Assembly (NCBI GenBank): GCA_963850735.1
Contig: CAWKMK010000006.1
Coordinates: forward strand, 26,800-90,799
DNA length: 64,000 nt
Reading direction: 5' to 3'
Source of the DNA: an uncultured Actinomycetes bacterium
GTDB taxonomy: Bacteria; Actinomycetota; Thermoleophilia; Solirubrobacterales; 70-9
Shown here: one piece after another, positions 901 to 48,240 of the stretch
Position numbering within the stretch: the stretch's first letter is position 1
Layout of the letters: each line of letters begins with the position of its first letter
The notes under the pieces: model-generated
What the model was told of the DNA's origin: nothing
Databases searched by the model: none
Seen by the model: only the letters and a program-made list of their open reading frames with translations
Position numbers and translations under genes: made by a program

Positions 901-1901
901 TGGAAGCCCTGCTGCTCCTCTTCAGCTTTGCCGTCGTCCTCGCCGGGGCGCTGCTGTTCACCAACGCGGTCGAGTGGATCGGCCACAAAATGAACGTCGG
1001 CGAGGGCGCGGTCGGCAGCATTCTCGCCGCGGTCGGGACGGCGATGCCGGAGACGCTGATCGCGATCGTCGCCCTGCTGGGGGCGGCGGAGGGCTCCGAA
1101 GACGTCGCGATCGGGGCGATCGTCGGCGCCCCCTTCCTGCTCGGCACCCTGGCGATGGGCCTGGTCGGCCTCTTCGCCTACCTCTACCGCGACAAACGCG
1201 AGCAGGGGGTCGAGCTGCGCGCCCACAAGCCGACGCTGGAGCGCGACCTCGTCTTCTTCCTCGTCCTCTTCGCGATCGGCGGCCTGCTCGCCTGGGGCCC
1301 GCCGGCGCCGCTGCGGATCGCCGTCGGGATCGCCTTCATCCTCGCCTACTTCTTCTACATCGCCCTGACCCTGCGTGGCGGCGGCGAAGTCCAGGAAGAG
1401 GAGAGCCTCAACCCGCTGATCTTCGAGCGCCGCGGCGACCGGCGCGAAAACCCGGCCCTGGCCCTCTGCGTGATCCAGCTCCTGGTCGGGCTGGGGGCGA
1501 TGGTCGGCGGCGCCCACCTCTTCGTCGAGGAGCTGCTCCACATCGCCGAGAGCATCGGCGTCGAGGCGCTGGTGCTGGCGCTGATCCTGGCGCCGCTGGC
1601 GACCGAGCTGCCGGAGAAGGTCAACAGCTTCTTCTGGGTGCGGGAAGGCAAGGACGCGCTGGCGCTCGGCAACATCACCGGGGCGATGGTCTTCCAGTCG
1701 ATGATCCCGGTCGGGATCGGCCTGATCTTCACCGACTGGGACCTGACCTGGACCGCGGTCCTCTCGATCGGCCTCGGCATCGCCGGCGGCCTGCTCGCCT
1801 ACGAGAGCCTGCACCTCTCGGGCCGCTTCAAGCTGCCGGCCGTGGTCGGCTGGTTCGTCCTCTACGCGAGCTTCATCGCTGCGGTAGCGATCAGCGCGTA
1901 G
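900..1901 (+). CDS. Sodium/calcium exchanger family membrane protein (CaCA, YrbG-like)
   Basis: The ATG at 900 overlaps the upstream stop (ATGA). 333 aa, multi-pass, with two Na_Ca_ex-type motifs (GTAMPETLIAIVA and ATELPEKVNS). Confidence 0.8.
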   Translation: MEALLLLFSFAVVLAGALLFTNAVEWIGHKMNVGEGAVGSILAAVGTAMPETLIAIVALLGAAEGSEDVAIGAIVGAPFLLGTLAMGLVGLFAYLYRDKREQGVELRAHKPTLERDLVFFLVLFAIGGLLAWGPPAPLRIAVGIAFILAYFFYIALTLRGGGEVQEEESLNPLIFERRGDRRENPALALCVIQLLVGLGAMVGGAHLFVEELLHIAESIGVEALVLALILAPLATELPEKVNSFFWVREGKDALALGNITGAMVFQSMIPVGIGLIFTDWDLTWTAVLSIGLGIAGGLLAYESLHLSGRFKLPAVVGWFVLYASFIAAVAISA

Positions 1902-1906
1902 AACCG

Positions 1907-3136
1907 ATGAATCCCGCTGACCTGTGGAGACATGGTCGCAGCGGATCCAACGCCGGGAGAGGTTTTCATTTCCAGGATGCGGTGGCTGCCGAACTTTCCG
2001 TTCGTGTTCTTGCAGGGGAAATCGATGCCCAGCGGATCGTGCCAGAGGGTCTTGAGGACTTGTCGCTGGAACTGCAGGATCGCTGGCTGCATCTTCAGGT
2101 CAAGTCTCGCCGAGAGCATCGAGGTGAGTTTGCGATGGGGGAAGTTGATGATGGATGGCGGCATCTTGCCGAACGCCTTGCTCGGGACCCGTCGGCTCAC
2201 GCGGCGCTTGTCCTCGAGCGTCCTCTGATCGATGCGGCGCCCACTGGTCTCGAGGGGACGCTTGCCGACTGCGACGATCTCCAACTGAGGGATTCCGTCG
2301 CTTCGGCGGTGGGGGGACTGATCGACGAGAGGTCCTTCCTGTCTCGTGCCCACCTGCTGGTCTGTGAAGCTCCAGAGGAGGAGGGCATACGGCATCTCGA
2401 ACGGGAGATGGAGGTTCCCCAGGCAAGTTGCGTTGCTCATCTGGCGATCCTGCGAAGCACACTGGCCCGCCTCGCCGACGAAAACGGTGTGCGCAGCTTG
2501 GAGGATCCGGCGGAGCTGACGGTTGGTGGCTTGCGGCGCCTACTGGACGACGTCAACGAGGCAATCGACCCCTCAGCGCTGGAGCGGGCGATAAGGGATG
2601 GCGCTGTCGAGCTAGTCGACTTCTCGGCTCCGATGGTCGACGAGGAGTTCTACCGCGGCGTAGATGTCGTTCCGGGGCACGTCGTGGCGGGTCTGCCGGT
2701 CGAGCGCGAGGAGGTAGGCACCCTTAGGGAGTCGCTGCTGATCAACTCTGTCGCCTTGGTGGTGGGCCCCTCCGGGTGTGGCAAGTCGGCGTTGATATGG
2801 CTTGCGGCGCACGCTGATCGGCATCGGTATTGCTGGTACCGGATCAAGAGGCTGAGCATGGCCGATGCGCCCAACTTGGTGAGGCTCGTCAAGAGCTTCA
2901 AGGCCAGCCAGGTGCCGCTGGCCTTCGTTGTGGACGATCTCGGACGTGCAGATCGAGAGGGGTTCGATTGGCTAGTCGAAGAGCTGAGGGAATATCCAGC
3001 GGTGAAAGTGGTCGGGGCCTGTCGCGAGGAGGATTTGCTTCTGGTGGAGACTGGCTCCACGGCGACGATCGTGCGTCCGGAGTTGACCCCGGCTCTGGCG
3101 GAGACGATCTGGTCCGAGCTTCGCGCTCAGGGGTGA
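1907..3136 (+). CDS. Cap4/DUF4297-like PD-(D/E)xK nuclease domain fused to a P-loop NTPase. Probable N-terminal part of a frameshifted ~1280-aa STAND-like protein.
   Basis: The ATG at 1907 lies inside the listed 974..3136 ORF; the upstream part of that ORF overlaps the exchanger gene and is spurious. The N-terminus has GRGFHFQDAV, then EGLEDLSLE and LHLQVKSR (E-D...Q-V-K nuclease motif). Walker A is GPSGCGKS (nt 2764-2787) and Walker B-like is LAFVVDDLG (nt 2918-2941). A spot count gives 38/60 G+C at 3241-3300, against 46/60 in the flank at 1081-1140. Confidence 0.7.
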   Translation: MNPADLWRHGRSGSNAGRGFHFQDAVAAELSVRVLAGEIDAQRIVPEGLEDLSLELQDRWLHLQVKSRREHRGEFAMGEVDDGWRHLAERLARDPSAHAALVLERPLIDAAPTGLEGTLADCDDLQLRDSVASAVGGLIDERSFLSRAHLLVCEAPEEEGIRHLEREMEVPQASCVAHLAILRSTLARLADENGVRSLEDPAELTVGGLRRLLDDVNEAIDPSALERAIRDGAVELVDFSAPMVDEEFYRGVDVVPGHVVAGLPVEREEVGTLRESLLINSVALVVGPSGCGKSALIWLAAHADRHRYCWYRIKRLSMADAPNLVRLVKSFKASQVPLAFVVDDLGRADREGFDWLVEELREYPAVKVVGACREEDLLLVETGSTATIVRPELTPALAETIWSELRAQG

Positions 3137-3332
3137 GACGAGCCGTCCGGCATGGAAGGAGGACTTCGAACGCAGCTCAGGTCTGCTGCTCGAGTTTGGC
3201 CATCTGCTGACCCAAGGAGAGCGGCTAGGTAAGACCATCAACGCGCAGGTCGATCGGCGGATTCGTGAGAAGCGCGCAACCGAGCTGGAGCTCTTAGCAG
3301 TCGTCGCGACCGCCGATGTCTACGGGGCGGCG

Positions 3333-5747
3333 ATGCGGACCGATCGCCTCTTAGGCGCTGTCGAAGGGGAGCCCGGTGAGATTAAGAAGGCGATGGTCCG
3401 GCTCGTCGACGAGCATTTGATCATCGACCGCGGTGGGGTTTTGGCGGGATTGCATCAGCTGCGTTCACGGGCTCTGATGGAAGCCGTCCACCGCACGCCT
3501 CCTCCGGATTTCAGTGACACCGTGCGTCGCGTGGGCGAGCTCGTCGACCCTCTGGGCCTCCAGTCTCTCCTGACCGGGCTGCTCATGGATGGCGCGCTGG
3601 ACGACGAGGCTGTTGTTGACCTGGCTGTGCGGCGGGTGAGAGGCGCACCAGACCTCGCTTCGCTCGCATCGGCGCTTCACGCCCTTCGCCTCGCTGGTTT
3701 CCAGCGTATGACCGGATGCTGGAAGGAGGCCATCGCCGAGGCAGATGTGGCGCCGGAGCATGTCATCGTCATTTGTCACCTCGTTCTTCACGATGGGGAC
3801 GAGAGCATCTTTCCCGAGCGCATCCAAAAGGTCGTACGCCATTTGCGATCCCTTCCCGTTCCGGATCTGAGGAAAGAGTTCATTACCTATGTAGACATTG
3901 CCTCGGTCCTGGAGACTGCTGCCGATTCTCGCGATCAGTCGGCCGCCTTGGCTGCGCTTGCCGGTATCGAAGGGCCGCCGCTCTCCATCGACCCTCAGGT
4001 CGTCGCGCGAGTCGCGCAAGGTGCCCCGCTGGATGAGCTCCGCCTGCTTTTGGAGAGCGTGTACCTAGCTGACAACGACCTGGCGAGGAACGTCGTCGAA
4101 GCCCTCGGTGGCTCGAATCGCTTGCTGGAGAGACTGGAGCACGAGCAGCCCTGGGTGCGACGCGCGTGTTTGTCGACGCTGGAGGACGGCAGGCTTGCCG
4201 CAAGTGCCGACTATGCCTTTGTCGCCGAAAGGCAGCAGTCTCAACCGCATGACGAAGTCGTCGATCTATGCCGGTTCTTACTCGCGTTGGCCCCAGAGAG
4301 CGAGGTGGCCGTATGTCGAGCGGTCGATGCGACCGGGAATCTCGCGGGCATCGGCGTTCCGATTGCCAACAAGACGATTCCGCGTGAGAATCTTCCAAGC
4401 AAACCGGCAATAGCCTGGAATCGCGCCCGGACGCGCGCTGCGCTGCGCGCGGTGGCCGCGCCCAGCAAAACCGAATACCTGCTCGGGGCCTTAGCGATAG
4501 TTCGCATGGCCGCTGAGGTCAGCAAGCGAGCTGCGAATGTATGGGCTCGCGAAAAGCCACCCTCGGTGGCACTGAGCAATGAACTGGATGCTCTTCAGGA
4601 GGCTGTCCAGAGGCTTCAACCTCCACCAATGGGACGAGAGAGCAGTGGGGCGCTCGACGAAGGACATCTACCGGGCAACGATCCGGCAAGTCAGATGGGG
4701 ACCCTGGGCGTGAGCTTTCTCGTCGAGCTGCTTACCGAGAGTCCACATCCCTCTCGGCTCGAGGCAATCGTTGGCGACATCGACCAGCTTTCGGCCTTGA
4801 ACTGGGCGCTCATCGGCGAGGAGCCCGTCTCGGAGTTGGCGAGCATGCGCCAGACCTTCGGCGATCTATACGCCGTGCTCGTGGAGCTGAGCGAGGCGGA
4901 CCCTCCTGTTCGGGCGGCGCTTCAGGCGGCTAGGCGACGTGGATTCGGAGGCATGGCGCGAGTCGCGCGACAGTCGGCTTCAGAGCGTGCGCAAAAGCAG
5001 AGGGAAGAGATCGCCGGAATAGTCGGCGGACTAGGGCTCGAGGCGCAGGTGGCTTGCCCGGAGCCTGATTTGGGGGCTGCCTGGTCGGGCACGCGCTGGT
5101 TCATAGCGGTCGATGTCGCCGAGTTCTCCGTCTGGTTCCAACAACAGGAAGCTCTTGTCGGGGCACTGCGAAGTGTTCTCGACCAAGTGGGATTTTCAAT
5201 GGCTCCTCGGCGTGGGGGTCTCGTCGTGGGATCCCTTGCGATCCAGGTCTACTCGAACGTGCATCCGGATCCGTCTGCCGAAGGATGGGCCGAAACCGGA
5301 TTTCAACTGCTCAACGAACGGCTGGTGGGGCTGGTTCGGGACGTGCTGGCCAGCCTGTACGAGATGTCCGGGATCGTCGCATCGCTAACCGCCGGAGAAA
5401 TCCACCCCGATGAGAAACAGGCATTCGATGCTGCAAACGAGTCCGTCTTGGAGGGGATCGCAGGGATCGAGGGTTGCGGCGGATCGCCGGGCGACGATCT
5501 GCTGACCGAGATCCGCGGTTCGCTGGATGAACTTCAGGAACAGGTGCGCAATGAGGTGGAGGCGTGGAAGTCCGGAGCGCCCGTCGAGCAGGCCATAGCG
5601 GCTATCGCGATGGAAGGCTTACGAGGGAAGTCAAGTGACCTGAGAGATACAGAAGCCGGTCTTGTCCTCGCGGCAGCCGAGTTCGACATCGATCCTCGAG
5701 ATGCCTGGGATCGCGTCTTCGGAGATGATGCGTCAGGCGGTGGCTAG
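3333..5747 (+). CDS. Large Leu/Ala/Glu-rich (probably helical) protein. Probable C-terminal sensor-like part of the same nuclease-NTPase gene.
   Basis: 804-aa ORF on the same strand, with the same AT-richer composition. Its frame is already open from nt 3087, overlapping the end of the preceding ORF. The segment IKKAMVRLVDEHLIIDRGGVLAGLHQLRSRAL looks like the winged helix that follows STAND NTPase cores. I recognised no other domain. Confidence 0.6.
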   Translation: MRTDRLLGAVEGEPGEIKKAMVRLVDEHLIIDRGGVLAGLHQLRSRALMEAVHRTPPPDFSDTVRRVGELVDPLGLQSLLTGLLMDGALDDEAVVDLAVRRVRGAPDLASLASALHALRLAGFQRMTGCWKEAIAEADVAPEHVIVICHLVLHDGDESIFPERIQKVVRHLRSLPVPDLRKEFITYVDIASVLETAADSRDQSAALAALAGIEGPPLSIDPQVVARVAQGAPLDELRLLLESVYLADNDLARNVVEALGGSNRLLERLEHEQPWVRRACLSTLEDGRLAASADYAFVAERQQSQPHDEVVDLCRFLLALAPESEVAVCRAVDATGNLAGIGVPIANKTIPRENLPSKPAIAWNRARTRAALRAVAAPSKTEYLLGALAIVRMAAEVSKRAANVWAREKPPSVALSNELDALQEAVQRLQPPPMGRESSGALDEGHLPGNDPASQMGTLGVSFLVELLTESPHPSRLEAIVGDIDQLSALNWALIGEEPVSELASMRQTFGDLYAVLVELSEADPPVRAALQAARRRGFGGMARVARQSASERAQKQREEIAGIVGGLGLEAQVACPEPDLGAAWSGTRWFIAVDVAEFSVWFQQQEALVGALRSVLDQVGFSMAPRRGGLVVGSLAIQVYSNVHPDPSAEGWAETGFQLLNERLVGLVRDVLASLYEMSGIVASLTAGEIHPDEKQAFDAANESVLEGIAGIEGCGGSPGDDLLTEIRGSLDELQEQVRNEVEAWKSGAPVEQAIAAIAMEGLRGKSSDLRDTEAGLVLAAAEFDIDPRDAWDRVFGDDASGGG

Positions 5748-6203
5748 TTCTCCCAGCGCCTTCAGCACGAGGTCGTCGTGCTTTTTCGGCTGAACTTTGG
5801 GGAAGACGCGGGCGATCTTGCCCATGGCGTCGATGATGAAGGTCGCCCGCTGCACGCCCATGTACTTGTTGCCGTACATCGACTTCTCGACCCAGGTGCC
5901 GTATTTCTCGGCGACCGCGTGGTCGGCGTCGGCGAGGAGGGTGAAGTCGAGGTCGTATTTGCCGGCGAACTTGTCGACGTCCTTGACCTCGTCCGGCGAG
6001 ATCCCGATCACCCGGGCGCCGGCGGCGGCGTAGTCGGCCCTGTGGTCGCGAACGCCGCAGGCCTGGGTGGTGCATCCGGAGGTGTTCGCCTTCGGGTAGA
6101 AGTAGAGGACCACGGTCTCGCCGCGCAGGTCCTTCAGCTTGACTTTCTCGCCGTTCTGATCGGGCAGCGTGAAGGCGGGCGCCCTATCTCCTGCTTCGAG
6201 CAC
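5733..6203 (-). CDS. bcp: Thioredoxin-dependent thiol peroxidase (peroxiredoxin Bcp)
   Basis: 156 aa with the motif VVLYFYPKANTSGCTTQAC and overall Bcp/AhpC-TSA-like sequence. It converges on the 3333..5747 ORF with a 15-nt overlap. Confidence 0.9.
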   Translation of the reverse strand: MLEAGDRAPAFTLPDQNGEKVKLKDLRGETVVLYFYPKANTSGCTTQACGVRDHRADYAAAGARVIGISPDEVKDVDKFAGKYDLDFTLLADADHAVAEKYGTWVEKSMYGNKYMGVQRATFIIDAMGKIARVFPKVQPKKHDDLVLKALGELATA

Positions 6204-6209: not shown

Positions 6210-6437
6210 CTACTGGCGATGCGCCGGCTCGACTATGCGGAGCCTGTCGGCCGGCACCACGAGAATCCGATCGAGACCGAGGTCGGCGGGCAGGCTCGTG
6301 AACTCGACCATCGCCATGTCGCCCTCGAAGACGTCAAGCACTCCGCCCGTCGCGCCTGCGGGGGCGGTCTCGAAGTCCTCTCGCAGCTCGACCAAGTCGA
6401 ATTCGGCAGCAGGAGCCTTGTCTCCCTCGGCGAGCAC
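6210..6437 (-). CDS. Small hypothetical protein (DUF4926-like pattern)
   Basis: 75-aa ORF with a GTG start 3 nt after the stop of the upstream gene. It follows the pattern DLVELRED...GATGGVLDVFEGDMAMVEF...VPADRL. Confidence 0.5.
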   Translation of the reverse strand: MLAEGDKAPAAEFDLVELREDFETAPAGATGGVLDVFEGDMAMVEFTSLPADLGLDRILVVPADRLRIVEPAHRQ

Positions 6438-6439
6438 GG

Positions 6440-6772
6440 CTACTCCTCCGGCTCGGGATCGGCTTCCGGCCGCTCGTCGTCTTCTTCGAAGTCGTCGTCG
6501 CTCGCTTCCAGCGCGTCGGCGACCAGCGCGTCGCCCTGGTTGGTGGTCTCGAAGGTCTCCAGGGCGCGGTCGCGCCCGTCCTCGTCGACCGGGACGTCGT
6601 CGGAGACCCGGACCCAGTCGGCGCCTTCGATCCCCTCGAGGTTGTTGAAGACCTCCTGGTCGGGCGAGGCGGAGTCGTCGACGATGACGACGACCTCGGT
6701 CTGGGGATTGAAGTAGGTCCCCGGCTGGTTCAGCATCTCCTCTACCTCGTAGAGGTTCTCCTGGGGGGTCAT
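6440..6772 (-). CDS. Acidic hypothetical protein (110 aa)
   Basis: Starts at the internal ATG 6772-6770 of the listed 6440..7258 ORF (MTPQENLYEVEEMLNQPGTYF...). The start overlaps the upstream stop (ATGA). The C-terminus is very acidic. Confidence 0.6.
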   Translation of the reverse strand: MTPQENLYEVEEMLNQPGTYFNPQTEVVVIVDDSASPDQEVFNNLEGIEGADWVRVSDDVPVDEDGRDRALETFETTNQGDALVADALEASDDDFEEDDERPEADPEPEE

Positions 6773-7251
6773 CAGCCCGATCCTACGAAATCGGCGAGCT
6801 GCTTTTCGGTCTCGGCCTCGACGTCGAGCGGCTCTCGCCCTTCGCGCATCCGGCGTTCGTTGCGGGCGACGACCAGCTGGCGCACCTCGGCCCGCAGCTC
6901 GGCGTCGATCGCGTCGGTTCCGCGCGGACGCTCGGCGCTCGCCAGCAGGCGCTCGGCCTCGGCCTCGACGTCCAGCGGCTGCTCGCCGCGCTGTCGCTGC
7001 CGCTCGGCTTTGGCGGCCAGCATCTGCCGCACCTCGGCCGCCTGCATGGCGGGGTCGATCGGGGGCGGAGCGCCCCTCGGGCCTCGGCTTTCGGGGGGTG
7101 CTTCGAGGATCGCGAACGGTCCGCCGCCCATCGTCTCCCAGCCGCCGCCGACGCGCTTCAGCAGCAGGCCGACCAGGGGCGCCGCCACGCCGGTGAAGGC
7201 GAGCACCGCCGCGCCCTTCTGCAGGGCGCTCAGAGCCAGCGGCAAGTCCAT
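6772..7251 (-). CDS. Hypothetical protein with one N-terminal hydrophobic segment and a duplicated charged motif
   Basis: 159-aa ORF. The N-terminal segment is AAVLAFTGVAAPLVGLLL. Two related motifs are present: RQRGEQPLDVEAEAERLLA and RMREGREPLDVEAETEKQLA. Confidence 0.55.
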   Translation of the reverse strand: MDLPLALSALQKGAAVLAFTGVAAPLVGLLLKRVGGGWETMGGGPFAILEAPPESRGPRGAPPPIDPAMQAAEVRQMLAAKAERQRQRGEQPLDVEAEAERLLASAERPRGTDAIDAELRAEVRQLVVARNERRMREGREPLDVEAETEKQLADFVGSG

Positions 7252-7334
7252 GGATCAAGGGTAGAGGGCGTTTCCCGAACCGGCCTGTCGGCGAATTCGG
7301 CGCTCGGACACCGGCTCGTCCGCTAACCTTGTGG

Positions 7335-8711: not shown

Positions 8712-9683
8712 GCTCTGAGCGGTGAATGTGCTCCAGGCGGGGGGCGAAACAGGGTGTGGTTGAGCTTTGGCGTGTCATGCACGCTGAAGCTCAACCACAC
8801 CCGAGGGGAGCGGGACGGCATCTGGGTCTGGCAGCGCTTGCGGATCGCCAGCATGGCGTCGTGTCGATTGGGCAGCTGAATCGGCTCGGGTATTCGAAGG
8901 ACCAGGTGCGTTGGGCCGTGAAGACGGGATGGCTGCATGCGATCGACCGCAGCGTCTATGCGGTGGGACATACGCGGCTTTCGGAGCACGGCAAATGCTT
9001 TGCCGCGGTTTTCGCCTGTGGTCCTGGTGCGGTGCTGAGTCATCACTCGGCTGCTTGGTTGCATGGCCTGGCGCGGTGGAGCCCAGCTCCGTTCCATGTC
9101 ACGGGGCCGGTGGCTCGCCGACCGCGTTTGCCGGTGCGGATTCATCGGGCGCGACGATTGGAGAGGGCAGATCGAGCGCTCGTCGAGAGGATCCCGGTGA
9201 CCGCCCTGTCGCGGACGCTGCTCGATCTGGCCGCGACCGTTCGCTTCGACTGGCTGGAGCGGATGGTCGAGCGCAGTGAAGAGCTGGAGCTATTCGATTT
9301 GCGTGCGGTCGAAGAGCTGCTCGCCCGCACGATCGGTCATCACGGCCACGGACGGTTGCGTCGCGCGATCGGCCTCTACAAGCCCTCCAGCTTCACCCGC
9401 TCGGGCTTGGAGAAGCGGTTCCTCGAACTGGTGCTGGAGGCCGGACTACCGCAGCCTCACACCAACTACGTCGAACTCGGCTTCGAGCTCGACTGCTATT
9501 GGCCCGAGCACCGCTTCGCGGTTGAACTCGACGTATTCGAGACGCACGGGACGCGGGCGGCGTTCGAGCGCGACCGCGAACGGCAGGAGGAGCTGTTGCT
9601 GGCGGGAATCGCAATGACGCGGGTCACCGGACCGCGCCTCGAACGCGAACCTCAGCAGGTGATCGAGCGCGTCGGGCGCCTGC

Positions 9684-11529
<1,846 letters not shown>

Positions 11530-38784: not shown

Positions 38785-39453
38785 ATGATCCCGCCGATGC
38801 CCACCGCCCTGCCCGCCGCCGTCGTCTTCGACAACGACGGCCTGCTGCTGGACACCGAGTCGGTCTGGACCCGGGCTGAGGAAGACCTCTTCGAGCGCCG
38901 CGGGCTGGAGTTCACCCCCGCCGACAAGCGCGAGCTGGTCGGCACCTCGGCCGAGATCGCGGGCGGCATCCTCGAGCGGCGCCTGGGCGAGCCGGGCCGG
39001 GCGGCCGAGCTGATCGAGGAGCTGAATGTGCTCGTGGTCGCCGAGCTCGAGCATGGGGTGGAGGCGATGGTGGGTGCACGCGAGCTCCTTGAGCGCCTGC
39101 GCGAGCGCGGCACCCCGATCGGCCTCGTCTCCAACTCCCCACTGCGCTTCGTCCAGCGCTCGATCGAGATCGTCGGCCTCGAGTCCCACTTCGACGTCAT
39201 CCTCAGCGCCCACGAAGTGGCAGCCCCGAAGCCGGCCCCGGACCCCTACCTGGAGGCGTGCCGGCGGCTCGGCGTGGAGGCCGGGCCGTCCGTCGTCGCC
39301 CTCGAGGATTCCCCGACGGGAGTAGCCGCCGCCCGCGCCGCCGGCCTCACCGTGATCGGCGTCCCCTCGGTCGAGGGAATAGCCCTCGAGGAAGCCCACC
39401 ACCTGGCCGAGTCGCTACTCGACGCCGTGGTGGCCAAACACCTCTCCTTCTAA
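38785..39453 (+). CDS. HAD-superfamily hydrolase, subfamily IA (beta-phosphoglucomutase-like)
   Basis: 222 aa, intact. Motif I VVFDNDGLLLDTE, motif II GLVSNS, motif III/IV KPAPDPY...ALEDSPTGVAAARAAG. Confidence 0.85.
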   Translation: MIPPMPTALPAAVVFDNDGLLLDTESVWTRAEEDLFERRGLEFTPADKRELVGTSAEIAGGILERRLGEPGRAAELIEELNVLVVAELEHGVEAMVGARELLERLRERGTPIGLVSNSPLRFVQRSIEIVGLESHFDVILSAHEVAAPKPAPDPYLEACRRLGVEAGPSVVALEDSPTGVAAARAAGLTVIGVPSVEGIALEEAHHLAESLLDAVVAKHLSF

Positions 39454-39668
39454 GCGAGAAACGACAGCCTCGCCTGTGCATGCGGCGCTCCAATGGAGAC
39501 GCGCGCCAAGCCGTTCAACGAGATTTGCAGCGATTTCTGCTTTTCGAATCGAGCAATCCGATCCAATTTTGCCGTCATGCTCCAACTTCCTTGATCAGTT
39601 CGATTCTTCCCACTAGGAATCGTTCTCGGAAACAACTCCGGCAAATTGCCGGATCAAGGAGGAAAGAA

Positions 39669-40259
39669 ATGAGGTACGTCAAGATTTTCGGTCTGCTCGC
39701 GGTTGCCGCAGCAGCCCTAATGGCGTTCGCCGGTAGCGCGTCGGCAACGACACTCACATCGCCGCTAGGCACTACGTACACAGGCGAAATCCACGCCGAC
39801 AACGAGAACGGGCACGTCAAACTCGAAAACCCGATCGCCAAAATCGAATGCGCCTCGACAGTATCGGGCCATATCGAAAGGCACGGGACTGGGGTGACAG
39901 TCGGGGGTAAAATCACAACACTCGACTTCACCGGGTGCACAAACAGCTGGCACGTAACATCGATTGCCAATGGCGAACTCGAACTCCATTACGTCAGCGC
40001 TGGTGTCGGGACACTGACATCTACCGGCGCGAAGGTGGATACGACACGCCTCGGCGTTACATGCGTGTACCAGACGAACGAAACCCACATCGGCACGGCT
40101 ACAGATAGCAGTATCACTAAAGGAACAGCGACATTGCATGTTTCAGCAGAAATCCCGATCAACTCCACGGAAAGCAGTGGGCTCTGTGGCTCCGGGAAAG
40201 CGAAATGGGAAGGCGCCTACACGGTGACAACCCCGATGGAACTGTGGATCGACCCTTGA
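39669..40259 (+). CDS. Small secreted protein, paralog A (unknown family)
   Basis: ATG at 39669 follows AAGGAGGAAAG, within ORF 39258..40259. Signal peptide MRYVKIFGLLAVAAAALMAFAGSASA. The mature part is Thr/Gly-rich with 4 Cys. It is clearly paralogous to 47634..48206. Confidence 0.75.
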   Translation: MRYVKIFGLLAVAAAALMAFAGSASATTLTSPLGTTYTGEIHADNENGHVKLENPIAKIECASTVSGHIERHGTGVTVGGKITTLDFTGCTNSWHVTSIANGELELHYVSAGVGTLTSTGAKVDTTRLGVTCVYQTNETHIGTATDSSITKGTATLHVSAEIPINSTESSGLCGSGKAKWEGAYTVTTPMELWIDP

Positions 40260-40288
40260 TCCGAACTCCATAGCGGAGAAAGTATCGA

Positions 40289-40324
40289 GCTGAATGCGGT
40301 CGGCTGTGGTCGGCCGCGTTCAGC
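40289..40324 (+). terminator. 16-bp stem hairpin after paralog A
   Basis: GCTGAATGCGGTCGGC-TGTG-GTCGGCCGCGTTCAGC (3 G-U pairs), with no T-run. Confidence 0.45.
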
Positions 40325-40345
40325 TACTAAGTAACGGCACGTTCC

Positions 40346-40374
40346 TTGACAAAACCAGCGTTGGTGCATATGTT
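40346..40374 (+). promoter_or_regulatory. Near-consensus sigma-70-type promoter for the 1342-aa gene
   Basis: TTGACA (40346-40351), a 17-nt spacer, then TATGTT (40369-40374), about 60 nt upstream of the ATG at 40435. Confidence 0.55.
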
Positions 40375-40434
40375 GGATCTGCTTGTCAAGGCAAGTCAAG
40401 GGACATTGGGATAGAAAGCGGGGGCTGAGCGAGG

Positions 40435-43400
40435 ATGAATACCTCAGGGTTCAGGGGTTCGGTAGTTGTAATGGGATTGATCCTTGCCATGGTCGCGCCG
40501 CATGCGAGTCGTGCCGCTGAAGCGCCCCTCTTCGAATCAGATCCCACCCTTTCGCTCATAGGCAACTGCACCACCCTCGCAGTCGACCCGTTGCCAGATC
40601 CTGGCTGTAGCGGAAAACCATTGGCCTACCCACCGCCGCCTGGAGGACCCACCGGTCAGTTCGCTGAACCACGCGCAGTCGCTATCGACCGCGCCGGTAA
40701 CCAGTATGTCACGAGTTTTGCCGGTGGCGACGACGCGAAAGGGCGAGTTGACGTCTTCGACGATGAAGGGGAGTTCATCACCGAGTTCGCCGCGCCCGAC
40801 ATTCAGACGGCGGCGGTCGACAGTGAAGGAAATTTCTATGCCTTCAGGAACGACGGCGCGGTAATCCGCTACGAGCCATTGGAATACGAACCCGAAGAGG
40901 GGAAAATCGAATACGGGGACGCACCGGTGACGATTTCCACCGGTCTCTTCGTGGGCTCTGTCGCGGTCGATTCCGACGCAGCTCACCTCGATCAGGTACT
41001 GGTCGCGAGGCCAAACGAAATCACCCGCTACAAATCCGCTGCAAACGGCAACGAACTGATTGAAGGCTTTAAACCAGCCAGCCTGGGCCCTTGGCCGGAA
41101 GCGATGATTATAGATTCACAGCGCAGGCGGGTCTTCGTCGTCGCCTGCAACAGCGGGGCGGTTGAATGTGGGGTAATGGTGGTCGAAGCAGATGCTCCGC
41201 ACGCTGTCCTGAAAGTCGTGGATGGCTCGACCACTCCTGCTGGCAAATTCGCCGCTTTTTCTGGGCAGCTCCCGCTCGCCGTCGATGAAGTGACGGGTGA
41301 TCTATTTGTCGCCGAATCGTTGGCTAAAGCTATCTATCGCTTCAACGTGAGTTATGAATTCCTCTCGCAGCTTCCTTTCAGTGAACTTGAAACGGGATCG
41401 CAGATCGCCATAGGCAATGGAACGCGATCGCCTACGGCTGAACCGTGTAAACACCCGAGCCAGCCCCCCCCGCCCGCCGGCGACGCCTGCAACCGCCACT
41501 ACCTCTTCGTCACCGTCTTCAAGGGCAAAGGACGCTTAGCCGCCTTTCACCCCCCGAACCAGAAGGCGCCCGTGCTCGACGAAGTCTCGACGCAAAGCGT
41601 CGGTGGGGGAGAAGCAGAGCTTGCGGCAACGATCTTCCCCGGAGGCCTTGAAACGACCTACCACTTCGAAATCACCACTCAGGCCAACTTTGAAGCCAAC
41701 GAATGGTTGGGCGCCACCAGCCTTGGCGAAGGGACGATCTCAGCCGCGAGTCTGGCCACCCAGGTCAGTGCCTTTGCCACCGGCCTAGCCTCCGGGCAGA
41801 CCTACCGCTTCCGCGTCGTCGCCGAAAACAAACTCGGCCCCGCAGAAGGCCAGAGCGAAGCCATCTTCACTACCTACAGCGACACCCCGATCTCACCCGG
41901 CTGCCCCAACGAAGCTCTGCGGATCGGCCCCTCGGCGCTTTTGCCTGACTGTCGCGCCTATGAGCTGGTCACGCCGGCCGATACCAACGGGCGTCCCCCG
42001 AGAGGTACCGGTTTCCTCGGCAGTCTCTTCTCGACCCTGCAGAGCACTCCTTCTGGAGGCGCGGTCTCCTTTAAGATCGACGGCGGCGCTCTGCCGGGCA
42101 CCCCGGGGGTGGGCAGCTTCGAGGGAGATCCCTACGTCTCCCGGCGCACTTCCTCAGGCTGGAGCACTGCGCTCGCCGGTCCCACCGGCTCAGAAGCGCC
42201 GGTCTCGGTTCCGGCCAGCTTCTCGCCTGACCAGGGCTACTCGTTCTGGACCGCCCGCGTAGAAGGACCTTTGGTGATCGAAGGTCGCTCGACCGAATAT
42301 CTGCGCTACCCCGACGGGCACTCGGAGCTGGTCGGTCGCGGCAGCGAAGGCACCGACCCGATCGCGCTCGGCAAACTCATTACCGAGGATGGCTCCCATG
42401 TCATCTTCCAGACGTTCAACCTTGCGCCCACGGTGGCGGTCAAGCTGGAGCCCGACGCGCCGCCGACCGGCACCGAAGCGGTCTATGACCGCACCATCGG
42501 GCCCGCAGGTGAAGAGCAGACCCACACGGTCTCCCTGCTGCCCAACGACGTCACCCCCGCGGCGGGTGAAAACGCCAGCTATCTGGGTGCCTCCAAAGAC
42601 GGCGAGGGCATCGCCTTTTCAATCGGCGGCAAACTCTACCTCCGCCTCCACAACGAAACCAGCTACGCAATCGGCAAAGGAGAAGTCGAATTCGCCGGCG
42701 TCTCCGAAGGCGGCCAGCGCATCTTCTACGTCGAAAAAGGAGACCTCGAGGCCTTCGACACCTCAAGCGAAGAAGTGATCGACTTCGCCGCCACCGGCGA
42801 CGCGATCCCGGTAAACGTCGCCGAAGGCGGCACCCGCGCCTACTTCGTCTCCCCGAGCGTGCTCCCCAGCCCCGGCTCTCCGGCTGAAAATCCCCAGGGC
42901 GACACCCCCGTCCCCCCGGCAAGCGGCCAGGGCACCCTGGGGGCCAAAGGCACCGGCACCCTCTCGGCGGCAAAAGGCGAAGGCACCCTGGAAGCCGAAT
43001 CTAAAAAAGTCACCGGCGTCACGACCAGCGAAGGCACCTTCGAAAAAGGCATGCAGATCACCGGCACCGGCATCCCTGTGGGCACTACGATCAAAAAAGT
43101 CGGTGCAGGCACCCTGACGCTCTCCAAGCTCGCCACCAAAGGGGGCGCCACCCCCCTCGCCGCCGGCTCCACCCTGATCACCGGCGTCTCGACCGGCGCG
43201 GGGGAATTCCAGGCCGGGATGAAAATCACCGGCTCTGGTATCCCCGCAGGCACGACCATCAAAACCGTGGCGGGCAGCACCCTGACCCTCTCCCAGGCCG
43301 CCACCAAACCGGGCGTAGGCGTCGCCCTCACCGCCGGCTCGACCCTCATCACCGGCGTCACCACCGGCAGCGGGACCTTCCAGGTCGGGATGAACGTCAC

Positions 43401-44463
43401 CGCCACCGGCATCCCCGCCGGGACGATCATCACCGCGATCGACGAAGGCGCCCAGACCCTGACCCTCTCCAGAGAAGCCGCGGCCTCCTCAGGTTCACAG
43501 CCGCTCTCGGCCTACGCCCAGAACCTCTACCTCTCCGAAGAAGGTCAGATCTCCTTCCTCGCCACGGTCACCGGCCGCGATGTGGAAGGGGAACCCGAAC
43601 CGCTCGGCACCTCCCGCTTCGACGGTCTCGGACTCTGGACCCAGCAAGTCGGCAACCAGCCTGCTCGCGACCCCTCGCGCACCAACCCCGACGGCTCGGT
43701 CCTCCTTTTCCAGTCGCGCGCCGAGATCACCGGTTACCCGGAGACCGCATTCCCCCAGATCTACCGCTACGACGCAACCGCCGGCGATCTGCAGTGCATC
43801 TCCTGCATTCCCACCGGCGTGCCGGCGACCGGGGGAGCGGCCCTGGAGAGCTACGGATTCGACTCTTTCTCGCCGCGGCCCTTCAGCCCCAATGGCTACG
43901 TTCCAAATCTCACCCCCGACGGCGGGCGGATCTTCTTCGACTCCACTGAAGCGCTCGTCTCCACCGACACCGATGAGGTCACCGACGTCTACGAGTGGGA
44001 GGCGAATGGAATCGGCAGCTGCACCCGACCGGCGGGCTGCCTTTACCTGATCTCCTCCGGTCAGAGCGATCGCGACAACTATCTCTACGCCCACTCGACC
44101 AGCGGCGACGACGTCTTCTTCACCAGCGGCGACAGGCTGACCGGTTCCGATAGCGGCGAAGGGTCGACCTCGATCTACGACGCCAAGGTGGGTGGTGGGT
44201 TCCCTGAATTTGATGGCGGAGGGGTGTGTACCGCCGGAACCTGTCCGCAAACGGACCATGTGCCCGTGGTTCCGGCTGTGCAGAGTTCCGCTCAAGGAAG
44301 AAGCGGCAATATTGCGAACCAGAAGCCCAAAACCTGCCCGAAAGGCAAGCGCAAGGTCAAGCAGAACGGCAAGGTCCGCTGCGTCAAGAAGCACAAGAAA
44401 CACAAAGGCAAGAGCGGCAAAGCCAAGAAGCGAGCCGGCGCCAACCGGGAGGCGGGCAAGTGA
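40435..44463 (+). CDS. Giant secreted multi-domain protein: NHL-like and TolB/PD40-like beta-propeller regions, FN3-like domain, three ~56-aa repeats, Lys-rich C-terminal tail
   Basis: 1342-aa intact ORF. Signal [21 protein letters not shown]. NHL-like [15 protein letters not shown]...[16 protein letters not shown]. FN3-like [17 protein letters not shown]. Propeller-type [28 protein letters not shown]. Tail [36 protein letters not shown]. Confidence 0.8.
   Translation: [1342 protein letters not shown]
43009..43515 (+). repeat. Three tandem ~168-171-bp coding repeats inside the 1342-aa gene
   Basis: Units start at 43009, 43177 and 43348. Consensus: (V/I)TGV(T/S)TG-G-F--GM-(I/V)[17 protein letters not shown]. 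Confidence 0.85.
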
Positions 44464-47147
44464 GCGCCCGCGCGATCAAGGCCGTCGGCTTGCTGTCCTG
44501 CCTAGCGCTCTGCCTGGCGACGAGCGCCAACTCGGCCAGCGCCGACAAAAACTACGCCGAATACGCGATCGAATCAGTCTCGGCGCAACTGTCCACCAAA
44601 CAAGCCGGCGCCCACGCTGACCTGACGACCAGCTTCGAGCTGAACGCGACCGAAGAAACGCCGCCCAAGCCCTTTGCCTTCACCCGCGACATCGTCTTCC
44701 ACCTGCCTCCCGGCGTGATCGGCAACCCGCAGCATTTCCAGCGCTGCACCCTGGGCGAGCTGGGCGCAGAACCCGAAGAAAGCGAATGCCCCCAGGACGC
44801 CCAGGTCGGCGTCACGGAAGTGCGCCTCGCCGGCTCGATCAACTCGACCTTGGTCGAGCCGATCTACAACATGGTCTCCCCGGGCGGGGAGATCGTCGCC
44901 CGCTTCGGCTTCTTCGCCGGTCCCTACCCGACGGTGGCGAACGTGCGGGTCAACCCGATCGACTACTCGCTGGAAGCCGCGGTCGAAGGCGCCTCGGCTG
45001 TGGCTGAAGTGATCGCCGCCGACACCACGATTTGGGGAGTCCCTGCCTCGCCGCTCCACGACGACCTGCGCCTCACCCCCCAGGAAGCAGTTGAAGAAAA
45101 ACTGCCCCCCGAAGGCCGCGAATCAGGCCAACCGGAAATCCCCTTCCTCTCCAACCCGACCGACTGCACGCTGCAGCGCCAGATCTCGGTGACCGCGATC
45201 AGCTACCAGCAGCCCGACGTGGAAGTGAGCAAAAGTGCTCCCTTCCCGGCGATCGGCGGCTGCGACAAACTGGTCTTCAAACCGAGCTTCACCGCGACCC
45301 CGACCAACCCCGAAGCTTTTGCCCCGACGGGCCTGGACGCCGTCCTGACGATCCCCCAAGACGAAACGCCCCAGGGCCTTGCCACCTCGATGATGAGGCG
45401 GGCGGTCGTCACCCTGCCGCAGGGGATGAGCGTCAATCCCGCCGCCGGCGACGGCCTCGAGGCCTGCTCGGCGGAGCAGGTGGGCTTCGGCACCACGAAT
45501 CAGTCCCACTGCCCCAACGCTTCCAAGCTCGGCTCCTTGGAAGCAGACATCCCGGCTCTGGAACGGACTCTGAACGGCTCGGTCTACCAGCGCACCCCGG
45601 AACCCGGCAACCTCTTCCGCCTCTGGTTCGTCACCGACGAACTCGGCGTGCACCTGAAGCTGCCGGCCGAAATCCAGGCCAACCCCCTGACCGGGCAGCT
45701 GACGAACCTGGTTGCCGGCATCCCGGCCCTGGACGGCATCCCCCAGGCGCCTTTCTCCCAGCTGCGCCTGCACGTCTTCGGCGGTCCCAGGGCGCCACTG
45801 GCGACGCCGGGATGCGGCAACTACGCCACGCACTACGAATTCATCCCCTGGTCGGGTAGGCCGGCGGCGGTCGGCGATGCGCCGATGCAGATCACTACGG
45901 GCTGCAACAAGGGTGGGTTTGCGCCGCAGTTTCAGGCAGGGACGACGAACTCGGTCGCGGGAGGGTTCGCGAGCTTCGTCTCCACCCTCACCCGCCAGGA
46001 CGGCGAAGCCAACCCCCAGACCCTCTCGGTCCACCTGCCCCAGGGCCTGATCGCGAAGATCGCCGGCGTCCCCCTCTGCCCCGAGCCCGGCGCCTCGGCT
46101 GGAGAATGCCCGGCAGGCTCCAGGGTCGGCTCGGTCGCCGCCGCCTCAGGCGTCGGCAGCGCCCCCCTCTGGATCCCCCAGCCAGGCAAGGCCCCCACCG
46201 CGATCTACCTGGCCGGCCCCTACAAGTCCGCCCCCTACAGCCTGGTGATCCGCGTCCCCGCCCAGGCCGGTCCCTTCGACCTCGGCACCGTTGTGACCCG
46301 AGCTGAGATCAACGTCGACCCGAATAGTGCAACCGCCACCGTCTCCACCGACCCGCTACCCCAGATCCTCGAAGGGGTGCCGATCGCCTACCGGGCGATC
46401 GCCGCGGTAGTCGATCGCGATCAGTTCATCTTGAACCCCACCGATTGCGACGAAAAGAAGATCGAGGCCACGGTGGTGGCCACCAACGGCGCCACCGCCA
46501 CCCCCTCGGCCTCCTACCAGGCCACCAACTGCGCCCGCCTCCCCTACACCCCCAAGCTGAAGCTGACCCTCAAAGGCCCGACCAGGAGAAGCGGCCACCC
46601 GGCCCTGAAAGCGGTCCTCACCCAGAAGCCCAACCAGGCCAACAACGCCAAGGTCTCCGTCCAGCTGCCGACCAGCCAGTTCATCGACCAGGACCACATC
46701 AACAACCCCTGCACCCGGGTCCAGTTCAACGCCGACGCCTGCCCACCGCTCTCGATCCTCGGCAGCGCCAGGGCGATAACCCCGCTGCTCGACCAGCCCC
46801 TAGAAGGGCCGGTCATCTTCAGGTCAAACGGCGGTGAACGCGAACTACCCGACATCGTCGCCGATCTCAAAGGTGGCGGCCTCAGAGTGATCCAGGTCGG
46901 CTTCGTCGACTCGGTCCCGGTCAAGGGCACCGAACTCGCCCGCCTCAGAACCCGCTTCCTCTCGGTCCCCGACGCCCCGGTCTCGAAGATCACGATCAGC
47001 CTCTACGGCGGCAAGAAACGCGGCCTCCTGGAAAACAGCCGCAACCTCTGCAAGACCAACCGCCTGGCCAAGGTCTCCTTCACCGGCCAGAACGGCGCCA
47101 CCCAGAACGGGAACCTGAAGATCGGGACCGGGTGCGGGGGGAAGTAG
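44460..47147 (+). CDS. Large secreted protein of unknown family (895 aa)
   Basis: GTG at 44460 overlaps the upstream stop (GTGA), within ORF 44226..47147. Signal AVGLLSCLALCLATSANSASA. Intact. Contains two NPTDC motifs and many paired Cys. Confidence 0.75.
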   Translation: MSARAIKAVGLLSCLALCLATSANSASADKNYAEYAIESVSAQLSTKQAGAHADLTTSFELNATEETPPKPFAFTRDIVFHLPPGVIGNPQHFQRCTLGELGAEPEESECPQDAQVGVTEVRLAGSINSTLVEPIYNMVSPGGEIVARFGFFAGPYPTVANVRVNPIDYSLEAAVEGASAVAEVIAADTTIWGVPASPLHDDLRLTPQEAVEEKLPPEGRESGQPEIPFLSNPTDCTLQRQISVTAISYQQPDVEVSKSAPFPAIGGCDKLVFKPSFTATPTNPEAFAPTGLDAVLTIPQDETPQGLATSMMRRAVVTLPQGMSVNPAAGDGLEACSAEQVGFGTTNQSHCPNASKLGSLEADIPALERTLNGSVYQRTPEPGNLFRLWFVTDELGVHLKLPAEIQANPLTGQLTNLVAGIPALDGIPQAPFSQLRLHVFGGPRAPLATPGCGNYATHYEFIPWSGRPAAVGDAPMQITTGCNKGGFAPQFQAGTTNSVAGGFASFVSTLTRQDGEANPQTLSVHLPQGLIAKIAGVPLCPEPGASAGECPAGSRVGSVAAASGVGSAPLWIPQPGKAPTAIYLAGPYKSAPYSLVIRVPAQAGPFDLGTVVTRAEINVDPNSATATVSTDPLPQILEGVPIAYRAIAAVVDRDQFILNPTDCDEKKIEATVVATNGATATPSASYQATNCARLPYTPKLKLTLKGPTRRSGHPALKAVLTQKPNQANNAKVSVQLPTSQFIDQDHINNPCTRVQFNADACPPLSILGSARAITPLLDQPLEGPVIFRSNGGERELPDIVADLKGGGLRVIQVGFVDSVPVKGTELARLRTRFLSVPDAPVSKITISLYGGKKRGLLENSRNLCKTNRLAKVSFTGQNGATQNGNLKIGTGCGGK

Positions 47148-47176
47148 TAGCGGCTCCCAGCTCCATACTCAGCTGT

Positions 47177-47420
47177 GATCGAGATGGTTGGCTTCGAGGC
47201 CCACTTCGGCCGCGTCTTCAGCGCCCATGAAGTGGCGGTCCCGAAGCCGACCCTGACCCCTACCCGGAGGCCTGCAGGCGTCTCGGTGTTGAGGCCGCCG
47301 CCCGTACCGCAAGCCTCCCGGTTATCGGTGTTCCTCAATCGAAGGGAATAGCCCCTGTGAAGCGCACCACTTCGCCGAGTCACTCCTAGATGCGGTGGTG
47401 GCAATGAGCCTTGTCTCTAG
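47177..47420 (+). pseudogene. Decayed duplicate of the 3' end of the HAD hydrolase gene
   Basis: Aligns by eye with 39162-39453 (for example GATCGAGATGGTTGGCTTCGAGGCCCACTTCG vs GATCGAGATCGTCGGCCTCGAGTCCCACTTCG, and ...CCCGAAGCCGACCCTGACCCCTACC... vs ...CCCGAAGCCGGCCCCGGACCCCTACC...). It contains in-frame stops and a deletion. Confidence 0.8.
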
Positions 47421-47633
47421 GCGATAGCTATCTCCTCGCGAGTGACAGCACCGCCTCAATGCGGGCGCGCGCCAGTTCGTTCATCGAGATTTCCAGCGAA
47501 CTTCGCCAAGCCGGTTTTGACTTTAAGGTCAAGGCAGGCTTTTCACCTCAGGCTTCTTGATAGTTTGCATATTTCGACTAGAACTCTCCTTGGAATCAAT
47601 TCCGGCCCAGATTTGGATCAAGGAGGAATACGC

Positions 47634-48206
47634 ATGAAGTACGTCAAGATTCTTTGCTTGCTGGCGGTTGGGGCCGCGGCCATGACGGCATTCGCCGCAA
47701 GTGCCTCGGCGGACACATGGACAACAACAACCCCCTCTGGCACGGTGGAGACACCAACGGTTCACTGGGTCAACGAGGGCGGTCACGTCACGCTCGCGAA
47801 CCCAATCGCCAACATCTCATGCTCTTTGACAATTGAAAAAACCGTCACAACCCATGAAAAAGGCAAACCGGTGGTAGCCCACCTCAACGCCCTGATTCCC
47901 AATGGCTGTACAAACAGCTGGCACGTGACAACGATCACCGCCGGTACGGTCTCGGCTGAGGCCAGCAACGGTGAAGTGAAATCAAGCGGGGCCAAGGTTG
48001 ACACGACACGGCTCGGCGTTACATGCGTGTACGAAACCAGCAACACCAAAATCGGCACCATCACAGGCGGCAGCCCGGCGACACTGCACATCGAAGCCAG
48101 CATTCCGATCAACACCGGGGAAAGCAGTGGCCTCTGCGGGACCGGCAATGCCAAATGGGAAGGCGACTTGGTCTCGACAACACCTCTTCATACTGATGAC
48201 AACTAG
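47634..48206 (+). CDS. Small secreted protein, paralog B
   Basis: ATG at 47634 follows AAGGAGGAA, within ORF 47442..48206. Signal MKYVKILCLLAVGAAAMTAFAASASA. Shares GCTNSWHVT, GAKVDTTRLGVTCVY, IPIN, ESSGLCG and AKWEG with paralog A. Confidence 0.75.
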   Translation: MKYVKILCLLAVGAAAMTAFAASASADTWTTTTPSGTVETPTVHWVNEGGHVTLANPIANISCSLTIEKTVTTHEKGKPVVAHLNALIPNGCTNSWHVTTITAGTVSAEASNGEVKSSGAKVDTTRLGVTCVYETSNTKIGTITGGSPATLHIEASIPINTGESSGLCGTGNAKWEGDLVSTTPLHTDDN

Positions 48207-48240
48207 CTGATGCCAGCTCGTCGACGAGTTGACGCATTAC

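Follow-up and report, generated by a model that had tools for sequence, protein, structure and literature searches.

We analysed a stretch of 64,000 nucleotides from an uncultured Actinomycetes bacterium of the order Solirubrobacterales (GenBank assembly GCA_963850735.1, contig CAWKMK010000006.1, positions 26,800 to 90,799 of the forward strand; hereafter the window), and concentrated on one gene at positions 1907-5747 (+), which lies between an antiporter operon and the convergent bcp gene. When one extra G is deleted from the run GGGG at 3130-3133, this gene encodes a protein of 1,279 amino acids (aa). An earlier note, written from the sequence alone, had proposed that it is a single-gene antiviral STAND (Avs)-like locus and had spoken of a "conceptually repaired" translation; a real one-base lesion lies behind that phrase. 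The note's direct readings of the letters were reproduced as well. The antiporter stop codon (TAG, 1899-1901) is followed by AACCG and then by the ATG at 1907, and the stop codon of the gene (TAG, 5745-5747) closes a 15-nt overlap with the convergent bcp open reading frame (ORF; 5733-6203, -), which gives the reported spacings of 5 nt and -15 nt. Both counts quoted for an AT-richer stretch, a G+C of 38/60 at 3241-3300 against 46/60 at 1081-1140, were found again, and all of the quoted motifs are present in the translation, namely GRGFHFQ (aa 17), EGLEDLSLE (aa 47), LHLQVKSR (aa 61), GPSGCGKS (aa 287) and FVVDDLG (aa 340). The features of the locus, each with the evidence by which it was placed, are listed here.

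1898-5732 (no strand): DNA inserted relative to close relatives, about 3.83 kb, with no flanking sequence of its own; from empty sites, the ends of homology and the G+C content at third codon positions (GC3).
1907-5747 (+): the whole disrupted gene for a predicted STAND defence protein, 1,279 aa once repaired; from ORFs, reading frames and homolog coverage.
1907-2236 (+): PD-(D/E)xK nuclease core of the Cap4/DUF4297 type, aa 1-110; from motifs, Pfam, PADLOC, a PDB profile comparison and fold matches.
2237-2602 (+): helical part of the effector module, aa 111-232, with the effector-swap boundary at its end; from conservation and the alignment of variants.
2603-3130 (+): STAND nucleotide-binding domain (NBD), aa 233-408, with Walker A at 2765-2788, Walker B (hhhhDD) at 2924-2944 and ACREED at 3017-3034; from invariant residues, the nSTAND5 model and the fold.
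3130-3136 (+): site of the frameshift, where GGGG, with one base more than the family frame has, runs into an in-frame TGA; from three-frame translation, the lack of a start before 3333 and the public record P0138.
3132-3497 (+): helical domain (HD) and winged-helix domain (WHD) of the NOD module, aa 409-530, with GLHxLRS at 3447-3467; from invariant residues and both structural models.
3498-5744 (+): family-specific C-terminal sensor region, aa 531-1279; from the AlphaFold model and the lack of a database counterpart.
4143-4457 (+): alpha/beta module 1 (aa 746-850), a conserved part of the sensor, with AWNRAR at 4413-4430; from conservation and invariant residues.
5028-5297 (+): alpha/beta module 2 (aa 1041-1130), a part of the sensor with poor conservation; from strands and helices in the model.
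5733-5747 (+): the final S-G-G-G-stop, five codons that come from host DNA lying antisense to the bcp 3' end; homology to an empty-site relative resumes at 5733.

In the three-frame translation, the frame that starts at the ATG at 1907 terminates at a TGA at 3134-3136, and the downstream frame is open from about 3087 with no ATG, GTG or TTG until 3333. Some 250 nucleotides of this start-less downstream frame already encode residues that are conserved in the family, for example LLLEFGHLLT. Homologs about 1,280 aa long align with 99% of the repaired protein and are 45-49% identical to it, and because the alignment of 39 sequences runs through the frameshift site without a gap, the lesion is a one-base insertion in a gene for a single polypeptide. 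It is very improbable that the locus is instead a split system made of a 408-aa nuclease-NBD protein and a separate sensor protein starting at 3333 or 3393. Both pieces are long open frames and gene callers did call a 784-aa product, but such a division ignores the conserved residues encoded by the start-less 250 nucleotides, and it would separate the NBD from the helical domain within the NOD module, leaving the product from 3333 without any helical domain. Moreover, the protein is a single polypeptide in all homologs, with no full-length homolog split.

The sequence around the break (3125-3140) reads GGG-UGA, and a +1 slip of the tRNA-Gly here would give exactly the full-length protein; this arrangement is not conserved in the homologs and is probably coincidental. 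As an explanation of the locus, programmed +1 ribosomal frameshifting at this site, yielding a low level of full-length protein as a throttle on a toxic gene, seems to us barely credible. It is true that, were the P-site tRNA-Gly to move from GGG onto GGU ahead of the in-frame UGA, precisely the repaired frame would result, and the combination of a slippery codon and a hungry stop is one that we take to resemble the prfB site, but no homolog is interrupted here, and the insertion of one base into a GGG run is the simplest reading.

The frameshift is the sole visible damage in the window copy. Every family-invariant residue is kept, and the copy departs from the family at 5 of 123 highly conserved positions, a number within the range of intact close homologs (0-6). 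This good preservation, together with a lesion that consists of a single base in a G run within an otherwise clean ORF, speaks for a sequencing or assembly error in the four-G homopolymer, in which case the real gene would be intact and functional and its identity would be the same. We regard such an error as possible but as the less likely course. On most platforms, four bases are a short run for an error of this kind, the syntenic host genes that were compared with relatives are intact, and recently inactivated defence genes are common. For this locus, the public protein collection contains only a 784-aa ORF call from 3393 (P0138, 100% identical), and the break is therefore present in the deposited assembly as well; since this record comes from the same data, it does not tell a real mutation from a sequencing error, and it neither confirms nor excludes the latter. 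Unless the extra G is such an error, the window copy is probably inactive, because the break separates the NBD from the helical domain and the only start open to the downstream piece, at 3333, lies within the NOD module.

For the structure of the repaired protein we used two AlphaFold models built on deep alignments, one of aa 1-604 (pLDDT 93.0, pTM 0.88) and one of aa 409-1279 (pLDDT 92.3, pTM 0.90). In the first model, aa 1-232 take the alpha-beta-beta-beta-alpha-beta core topology. The nuclease motifs are invariant or nearly so in the family, namely GRGFxFQ or GRGFxYQ (17-23), P46-E47-G48-x-x-D51, Q64-x-K66-S-R68 and E104, while the helical part at aa 111-232 is the N-terminal segment with the lowest conservation, at 36% mean identity. 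The Pfam model Cap4_nuclease (PF14130) matched the window copy at the correct place with E=0.15 (12.6 bits, cut-off 26.2), and it matched 21 of the 37 family members that were scanned at E<=0.01, the best with E=1.2e-6; several homologs carry a precomputed PF14130 assignment. The LmuA models of PADLOC were matched by 21/37 members and HamA by up to nine, and a family profile compared with the PDB aligned with LmuA (E=0.002) and HamA/AbpA (E=0.004) on the nuclease motifs. A Foldseek search with the pLDDT-93 model returned HamA (2e-6), HerA-associated DUF4297 proteins (2e-6 and 6e-4) and LmuA (8e-5), the PDB entries of these nuclease matches being 8zue_A, 9c1m_G, 9hr5 and 8zit. A truncated plasmid copy of the family has also been named "dsDNA nuclease domain-containing protein" by PGAP. 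We therefore assign aa 1-232, from these profile and model comparisons, as a predicted PD-(D/E)xK nuclease of the Cap4/DUF4297 type that serves as the effector, in agreement with the type named in the earlier note, the support coming at the level of the family and of the model.

The NBD contains ten residues that are invariant in the 39 sequences (G287, S289, G290, G292, K293, S294, D343, G346, R373 and E375). They include those of Walker A (GPSGCGKS, aa 287-294) and Walker B (FVVDD, aa 340-344), and R373, in the ACREED motif, is a sensor-1-like arginine. Further downstream, LLLE(Y/F)xHLLT in the helical domain and GLHxLRS in the winged helix, with H516 and R519, are likewise invariant. The model contains a five-stranded parallel NBD sheet, helices at 395-471 and a winged helix with a beta-hairpin at 506-513, the wing, which is present in both models; a winged-helix-like stretch after the NTPase had been named in the earlier note. 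Only one curated model recognises the NTPase, nSTAND_NTPase5 (PF25199), which matched aa 247-376 of the window copy with E=3.8e-6 (27.2 bits, cut-off 34) and 29 of the 37 members at E<=0.01, with a best E of 3e-10; it is precomputed on many homologs. Some members also gave weak Pfam matches to nSTAND3, and some gave weak matches to HTH_24, MarR_2 and GntR in the region of aa 409-530.

When the N-terminal 604 aa were searched with Foldseek, human SAMD9 was the best match (E=1e-9, TMq 0.42), and the other matches were the archaeal ATPase Sso1545, CED-4, RPP1, ZAR1, NRC3/4, NLRP3, Dark and the Avs5 filament; these STAND fold matches span E=1e-9 to 6e-4. The NTPase did not cluster with a housekeeping ATPase family. 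On these residues and models, aa 233-530 are best described as an NBD-HD-WHD switch of the STAND superfamily, of the nSTAND5 or SAMD9-like type. A literature search for nSTAND5 found no description of it.

The C-terminal region had been described in the earlier note as some 800 aa of helical sequence without a recognisable domain. The lack of a recognised domain stood, since the region gave no match in Pfam, PADLOC or NCBIfam, but it is about 750 aa long and is not purely helical. In the AlphaFold model it opens with helical repeats and closes with a helical bundle; between these lie alpha/beta module 1, a stretch of long helices and alpha/beta module 2, in that order. Only one PDB entry was matched at E<=0.001, Avs3 bound to the phage terminase (8dgc_B, E=1.9e-4), and this match is marginal, with a TM of 0.12; the remaining PDB matches of the C-terminal model are alpha-solenoid noise. 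A search of the sensor model against BFVD gave no match at E<=0.001. The two alpha/beta modules were also considered as an internal duplication or as derivatives of the nuclease or the NBD, and this was rejected, as the hhalign probabilities did not exceed 3%.

The degree of conservation differs greatly along the protein. The mean pairwise identity is 0.46 in the nuclease core, 0.51 in the NBD and 0.49 in the HD-WHD; in the sensor it is 0.24-0.31 outside module 1, with 25-29% in module 2, while module 1 reaches 45-49%. This distribution of identity is what would be expected of a conserved engine joined to a fast-evolving sensor, module 1 being the exception. Its residues W749, Q777, H781, K822, R826 and W837-N838-R839 are invariant or nearly so, and module 1 alone gave only noise against Pfam and the PDB (uL18 with E=0.07, HEAT with 0.04). 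Because module 1 is conserved like the catalytic domains, has invariant polar residues (H781, K822, R826, N838 and R839) and belongs to no known family, it could be a dedicated site for an invariant ligand (for instance, a signal in the form of a nucleic acid or a nucleotide, or else a host factor that is recruited), while the variable helices would read the phage. A parallel exists in Avs7, which recruits the host factor EF-Tu. This idea is tentative and, in our view, rather unlikely; if it were true, the family would use a two-part or non-protein sensing logic that is so far undescribed among STAND proteins.

A search of 5.8 billion clustered proteins gave 238 matches, dozens of them about 1,280 aa long. 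When only the sensor (aa 541-1279) was used as the query against 1.84 billion representatives, 261 relatives were obtained, counted as representatives of 50%-identity clusters, and in nearly all of the full-length ones the sensor begins at residue ~540-630 of a protein of 1,220-1,350 aa. The family is spread over Solirubrobacterales, alpha- and gamma-proteobacteria and conjugative plasmids, including pAt of Agrobacterium tumefaciens, which in strain Ach5 carries an intact homolog (WP_038496253.1); WP_306120703.1 and WP_255612203.1 are further homologs. In the repaired window protein, the nuclease (1-232), the NOD module (233-530) and the sensor (531-1279) form one polypeptide. Relatives without the nuclease motifs were then inspected for other effectors, and the same NTPase and sensor were found behind a SIR2 domain (P0182, E=1.8e-21), a TIR domain (P0205, E=5.6e-25) and a calcineurin-like phosphoesterase (Metallophos; P0234, E=5e-10). 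In PADLOC these swapped domains correspond to ThsA/Dsr-type SIR2, to TIR effectors, and to a CBASS effector (P0234, 2e-23) and PDC-S60, respectively. Homology of the variants to this family begins at a conserved segment, CExVDF...FYxGVDVxPGH, and the point of the swap is just upstream of it.

Two unusual loci were examined within the family. The copy on the Sphingopyxis indica plasmid pMC4 (H8; L011 7983-12307) ends after its winged-helix domain, where an IS21 element (istA, istB) interrupts it; H8, like H9, had looked like a sensor swap, and for H8 this was rejected, as the copy is truncated by the IS21 insertion. Together with the frameshift in the window, it makes two independent inactivations in the family. 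In a distant homolog from A. vitis, the gene is followed, with a 14-nt overlap, by a gene for 1,459 aa with a match to Pfam PF22726 (NCAB2; L005 13926-18305). The NCAB2 gene was rejected as a conserved partner, being absent from A. tumefaciens pAt, from the actinobacterial loci and from the window, although it may mark a two-gene sub-branch.

The order of modules in the repaired protein, a Cap4-type nuclease, a STAND NBD-HD-WHD and a large C-terminal sensor in one polypeptide, is the same as in Avs7 (SeAvs7) and in Cap4-bearing Avs3 (PMC13581612; 8dgc). In these two systems, a phage protein is bound, the receptor tetramerises in an ATP-dependent manner and DNA is cleaved (PMC13581612). The present family differs from them in having an nSTAND5-type NTPase and two alpha/beta modules in its sensor rather than TPR-like repeats only. 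Among the solved structures that were searched, no chain of Avs7-21 was returned. A second comparison is with SAMD9/SAMD9L and the SAMD9-like Avs5, Avs6 and Avs9 (PMC12680541; Avs5 filament 9nc9); here the NTPase region is like that of SAMD9, Avs5 is matched at 1e-4, and nSTAND3 is the NTPase type of Avs5. The SIR2-bearing variant P0182 shares its effector with the SAMD9-like Avs proteins, whereas the effector of the window protein is of the Cap4 DNase type and not AlbA_2, SIR2 or PNP, and the comparison of its C-terminal half with SAMD9 (E=0.31) is no evidence of a TPR and OB sensor. PF25199 itself recognises the NTPase, but it is a domain model and defines no system.

Outside the Avs class, the Cap4/DUF4297 effectors of CBASS, Lamassu (LmuA), Hachiman (HamA) and DUF4297-HerA have the nuclease fold and the GF-YQ, PE-xD and QxK motifs in common with the window protein. 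However, those nucleases work with separate partners (the cyclic-nucleotide-sensing SAVED, the LmuB SMC protein, the HamB helicase and HerA, respectively), whereas here the nuclease is fused to a STAND switch and a sensor. Lamassu was rejected for the locus because the adjacent genes are an antiporter gene and bcp and because the ATPase is in the same polypeptide and is of the STAND and not the SMC type. DUF4297-HerA and Hachiman were rejected because there is no HerA or HamB neighbour in the window or directly beside the homologs examined. The exclusion of Lamassu and DUF4297-HerA in the earlier note was thus borne out, and so was the Avs-like combination of effector, STAND NTPase and long sensor in one polypeptide. 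A structural comparison with Avs proteins that it had suggested gave Avs5 for the N-terminal model and, marginally, Avs3 for the C-terminal one. Its proposal of an undescribed sensor type also holds in the databases searched. None of the outcomes that it had named as refuting its reading was observed.

The family is uncharacterised and its sensor undescribed, as judged against Pfam, PADLOC v2, NCBIfam, the PDB and BFVD only. PADLOC-DB v2.0.0, which contains models of Avs1-Avs5, gave no match to the window protein at E<=1. A literature search with five family-member accessions found no mention of them. At least 90 such families were catalogued in 2026, when Lee et al. described 684 sensor clusters (PMC13581612), and the present family may well lie inside that catalogue, neither named nor tested there.

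We examined the neighbourhoods of nine homologs within 10 kb, which is a sample and not a statistical test against background. Defence or mobile-element genes were present in seven of the nine, and the contexts were variable rather than a conserved non-defence operon. One homolog lies near an integrase, a TrwC relaxase and helix-turn-helix regulators; another near GmrSD, McrBC and transposases, with a weak HerA_C ORF ~9 kb off; a third near a CBASS cyclase, an MmeI-type restriction-modification gene, an integrase and Abi_2; a fourth near an XcyI restriction enzyme (RE_XcyI); and a fifth near transposases, an integrase, a PIN gene and an SMC-like ATPase. The homolog on a Ruegeria plasmid has AbiEi/AbiEii and IS110 nearby, and that on A. 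tumefaciens pAt has an integrase, VapB and a SMEK-domain protein. Matches were found in 13 plasmid records, seven of them conjugative.

The many copies on conjugative plasmids or beside integrases, relaxases and transposases, and the lack of a phage trigger on record for the family, could also mean that it is not mainly directed against phages and is a module of mobile-element conflict or addiction (stabilising a plasmid or an integrative and conjugative element, or acting in competition between elements) or some other cell-death switch. We consider this quite improbable. Proven anti-phage systems are just as typically carried on mobile elements; restriction, CBASS and Abi genes are among the neighbours; the swapped effectors (SIR2, TIR and the CBASS-type phosphoesterase) are those of anti-phage systems; and the window copy is chromosomal, without mobile-element genes beside it. 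A defence role is supported by the sequence comparisons, namely by the effector swaps, the defence and mobile-element context of the homologs and the acquired state of the window gene.

The acquired state is apparent from the composition and from relatives in which the site is empty. The gene has a G+C content of 62.5% against 67-68% in its flanks, and its GC3 is 0.68-0.70 against 0.944 +/- 0.017 in ten host genes; this compositional contrast is far beyond chance. In a close relative (L014), whose flanks are 93% identical upstream and 83-89% identical downstream at the nucleotide level, the stop codon of the antiporter gene abuts that of bcp. The same abutting stops are found in a second lineage, in L015 and three similar contigs, which makes five related contigs with an empty site in all. 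Nucleotide homology to the relative stops at window position 1897 and resumes at 5733, the bcp stop codon (-), and these empty sites place the insert at about 1898-5732. The residues S-G-G-G before the stop have no counterpart in the homologs; the insert contains no native stop codon, and its ORF ends in sequence antisense to bcp. On this evidence we consider the gene to be horizontally acquired and recently inserted between the antiporter operon and bcp.

The junctions of the insert are unusually precise, with foreign DNA beginning 0-5 nt from the antiporter stop and no repeats, integrase or tRNA nearby. In the empty site of the relative (L014 8975-9030), the convergent stops form a perfect 14-nt palindrome, CGCCTGA/TCAGGCG. 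A search around the insert for target-site duplications, terminal repeats and promoter or terminator signals gave nothing above chance, and no tRNA or Rfam family was found in the 64-kb window.

Taken together, the locus is best explained as a gene that was acquired horizontally and that by itself encodes an antiviral STAND NTPase, an Avs-like, NLR-type bacterial receptor from an uncharacterised family, and we put the probability of this reading at roughly 0.78. The tripartite architecture, the effector swapping and the defence context are those of the STAND superfamily and of the Avs class. Several observations weigh on the other side. The family is known from sequences and models alone, and in no member was there a match to a PADLOC Avs/AVAST or NCBIfam model (for PADLOC, none of the 25 most frequently matched families listed for the 37 members is Avs/AVAST). 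By itself, the window copy stays under the cut-offs of both Pfam models, at 12.6 against 26.2 bits for Cap4_nuclease and at 27 against 34 bits for nSTAND5, and it carries the frameshift; the insert brings no promoter of its own. The strongly conserved alpha/beta module in the sensor is unusual for Avs sensors, which are mostly TPR-like. Two of the nine neighbourhoods (P0047 and P0009) are mostly housekeeping, with only a gene with an EC042_2821 domain or a PIN/MazE pair. Finally, a tblastn search with the C-terminal 871 aa (HD-WHD and sensor) gave no match in 50,697 phage records, so there is no link to prophages.

If the antiviral reading is correct, the intact protein may work in the manner of Avs3, Avs4 and Avs7 (PMC13581612; PDB 8dgc), on which the following scheme is modelled. 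In the resting state, the sensor and the NTPase would keep the nuclease inactive, the protein presumably being a monomer as in those three. A phage-derived ligand, most likely a conserved phage protein, would bind the sensor and open the NTPase, and nucleotide exchange or ATP binding would then lead to oligomerisation. The clustered Cap4 nuclease domains could cut double-stranded DNA indiscriminately and thereby cause abortive infection. Protection against phage and activation by a phage component are suggested here by analogy with the characterised systems.

Other parts of the window also drew our attention. A second island of low G+C lies at 39000-48500, where the G+C content of 1-kb segments falls to 0.545 (39501-40500). 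It contains two very large ORFs on the forward strand, 40435-44463 (1,342 aa) and 44226-47147 (973 aa); they lie in different frames and share 238 nt. No match in Pfam or PADLOC was obtained for either, and the first is weakly titin-like (Ig/Fn3 repeat) in the PDB. This island may be another foreign gene, perhaps frameshifted too, that codes for a surface protein. At 8726-9733 (+), an ORF of 335 aa combines an AbiEi_4 antitoxin-like N-terminus with a C-terminus of the REase_MTES_1575 (DUF559-like) type, and its GC3 of 0.74 is below that of the host; at the matching place the relative L014 has an MTES_1575 ORF of 197 aa. Between bcp and an acyl-CoA dehydrogenase gene (6210-7258, -) there are two small calls without a Pfam match, of 75 aa (6210-6437) and 159 aa (6772-7251), which seem, judged by position, to match genes of 111 aa and 156/157 aa in both relatives.

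With this finding, the bacterial NLR-like (Avs) repertoire gains an uncharacterised family. Its architecture is unsurprising and leaves the understanding of the class unchanged. What deserves attention in the family is the conserved alpha/beta module in the sensor, a sensor without a solved counterpart, the clear effector swaps and the very confident AlphaFold models. The locus itself is a clean natural case of a single predicted defence gene that was set down exactly between its two host neighbours and that one base has since probably inactivated. The intact homolog in a cultured and genetically accessible Agrobacterium strain offers a tractable entry to what would be a new phage trigger.

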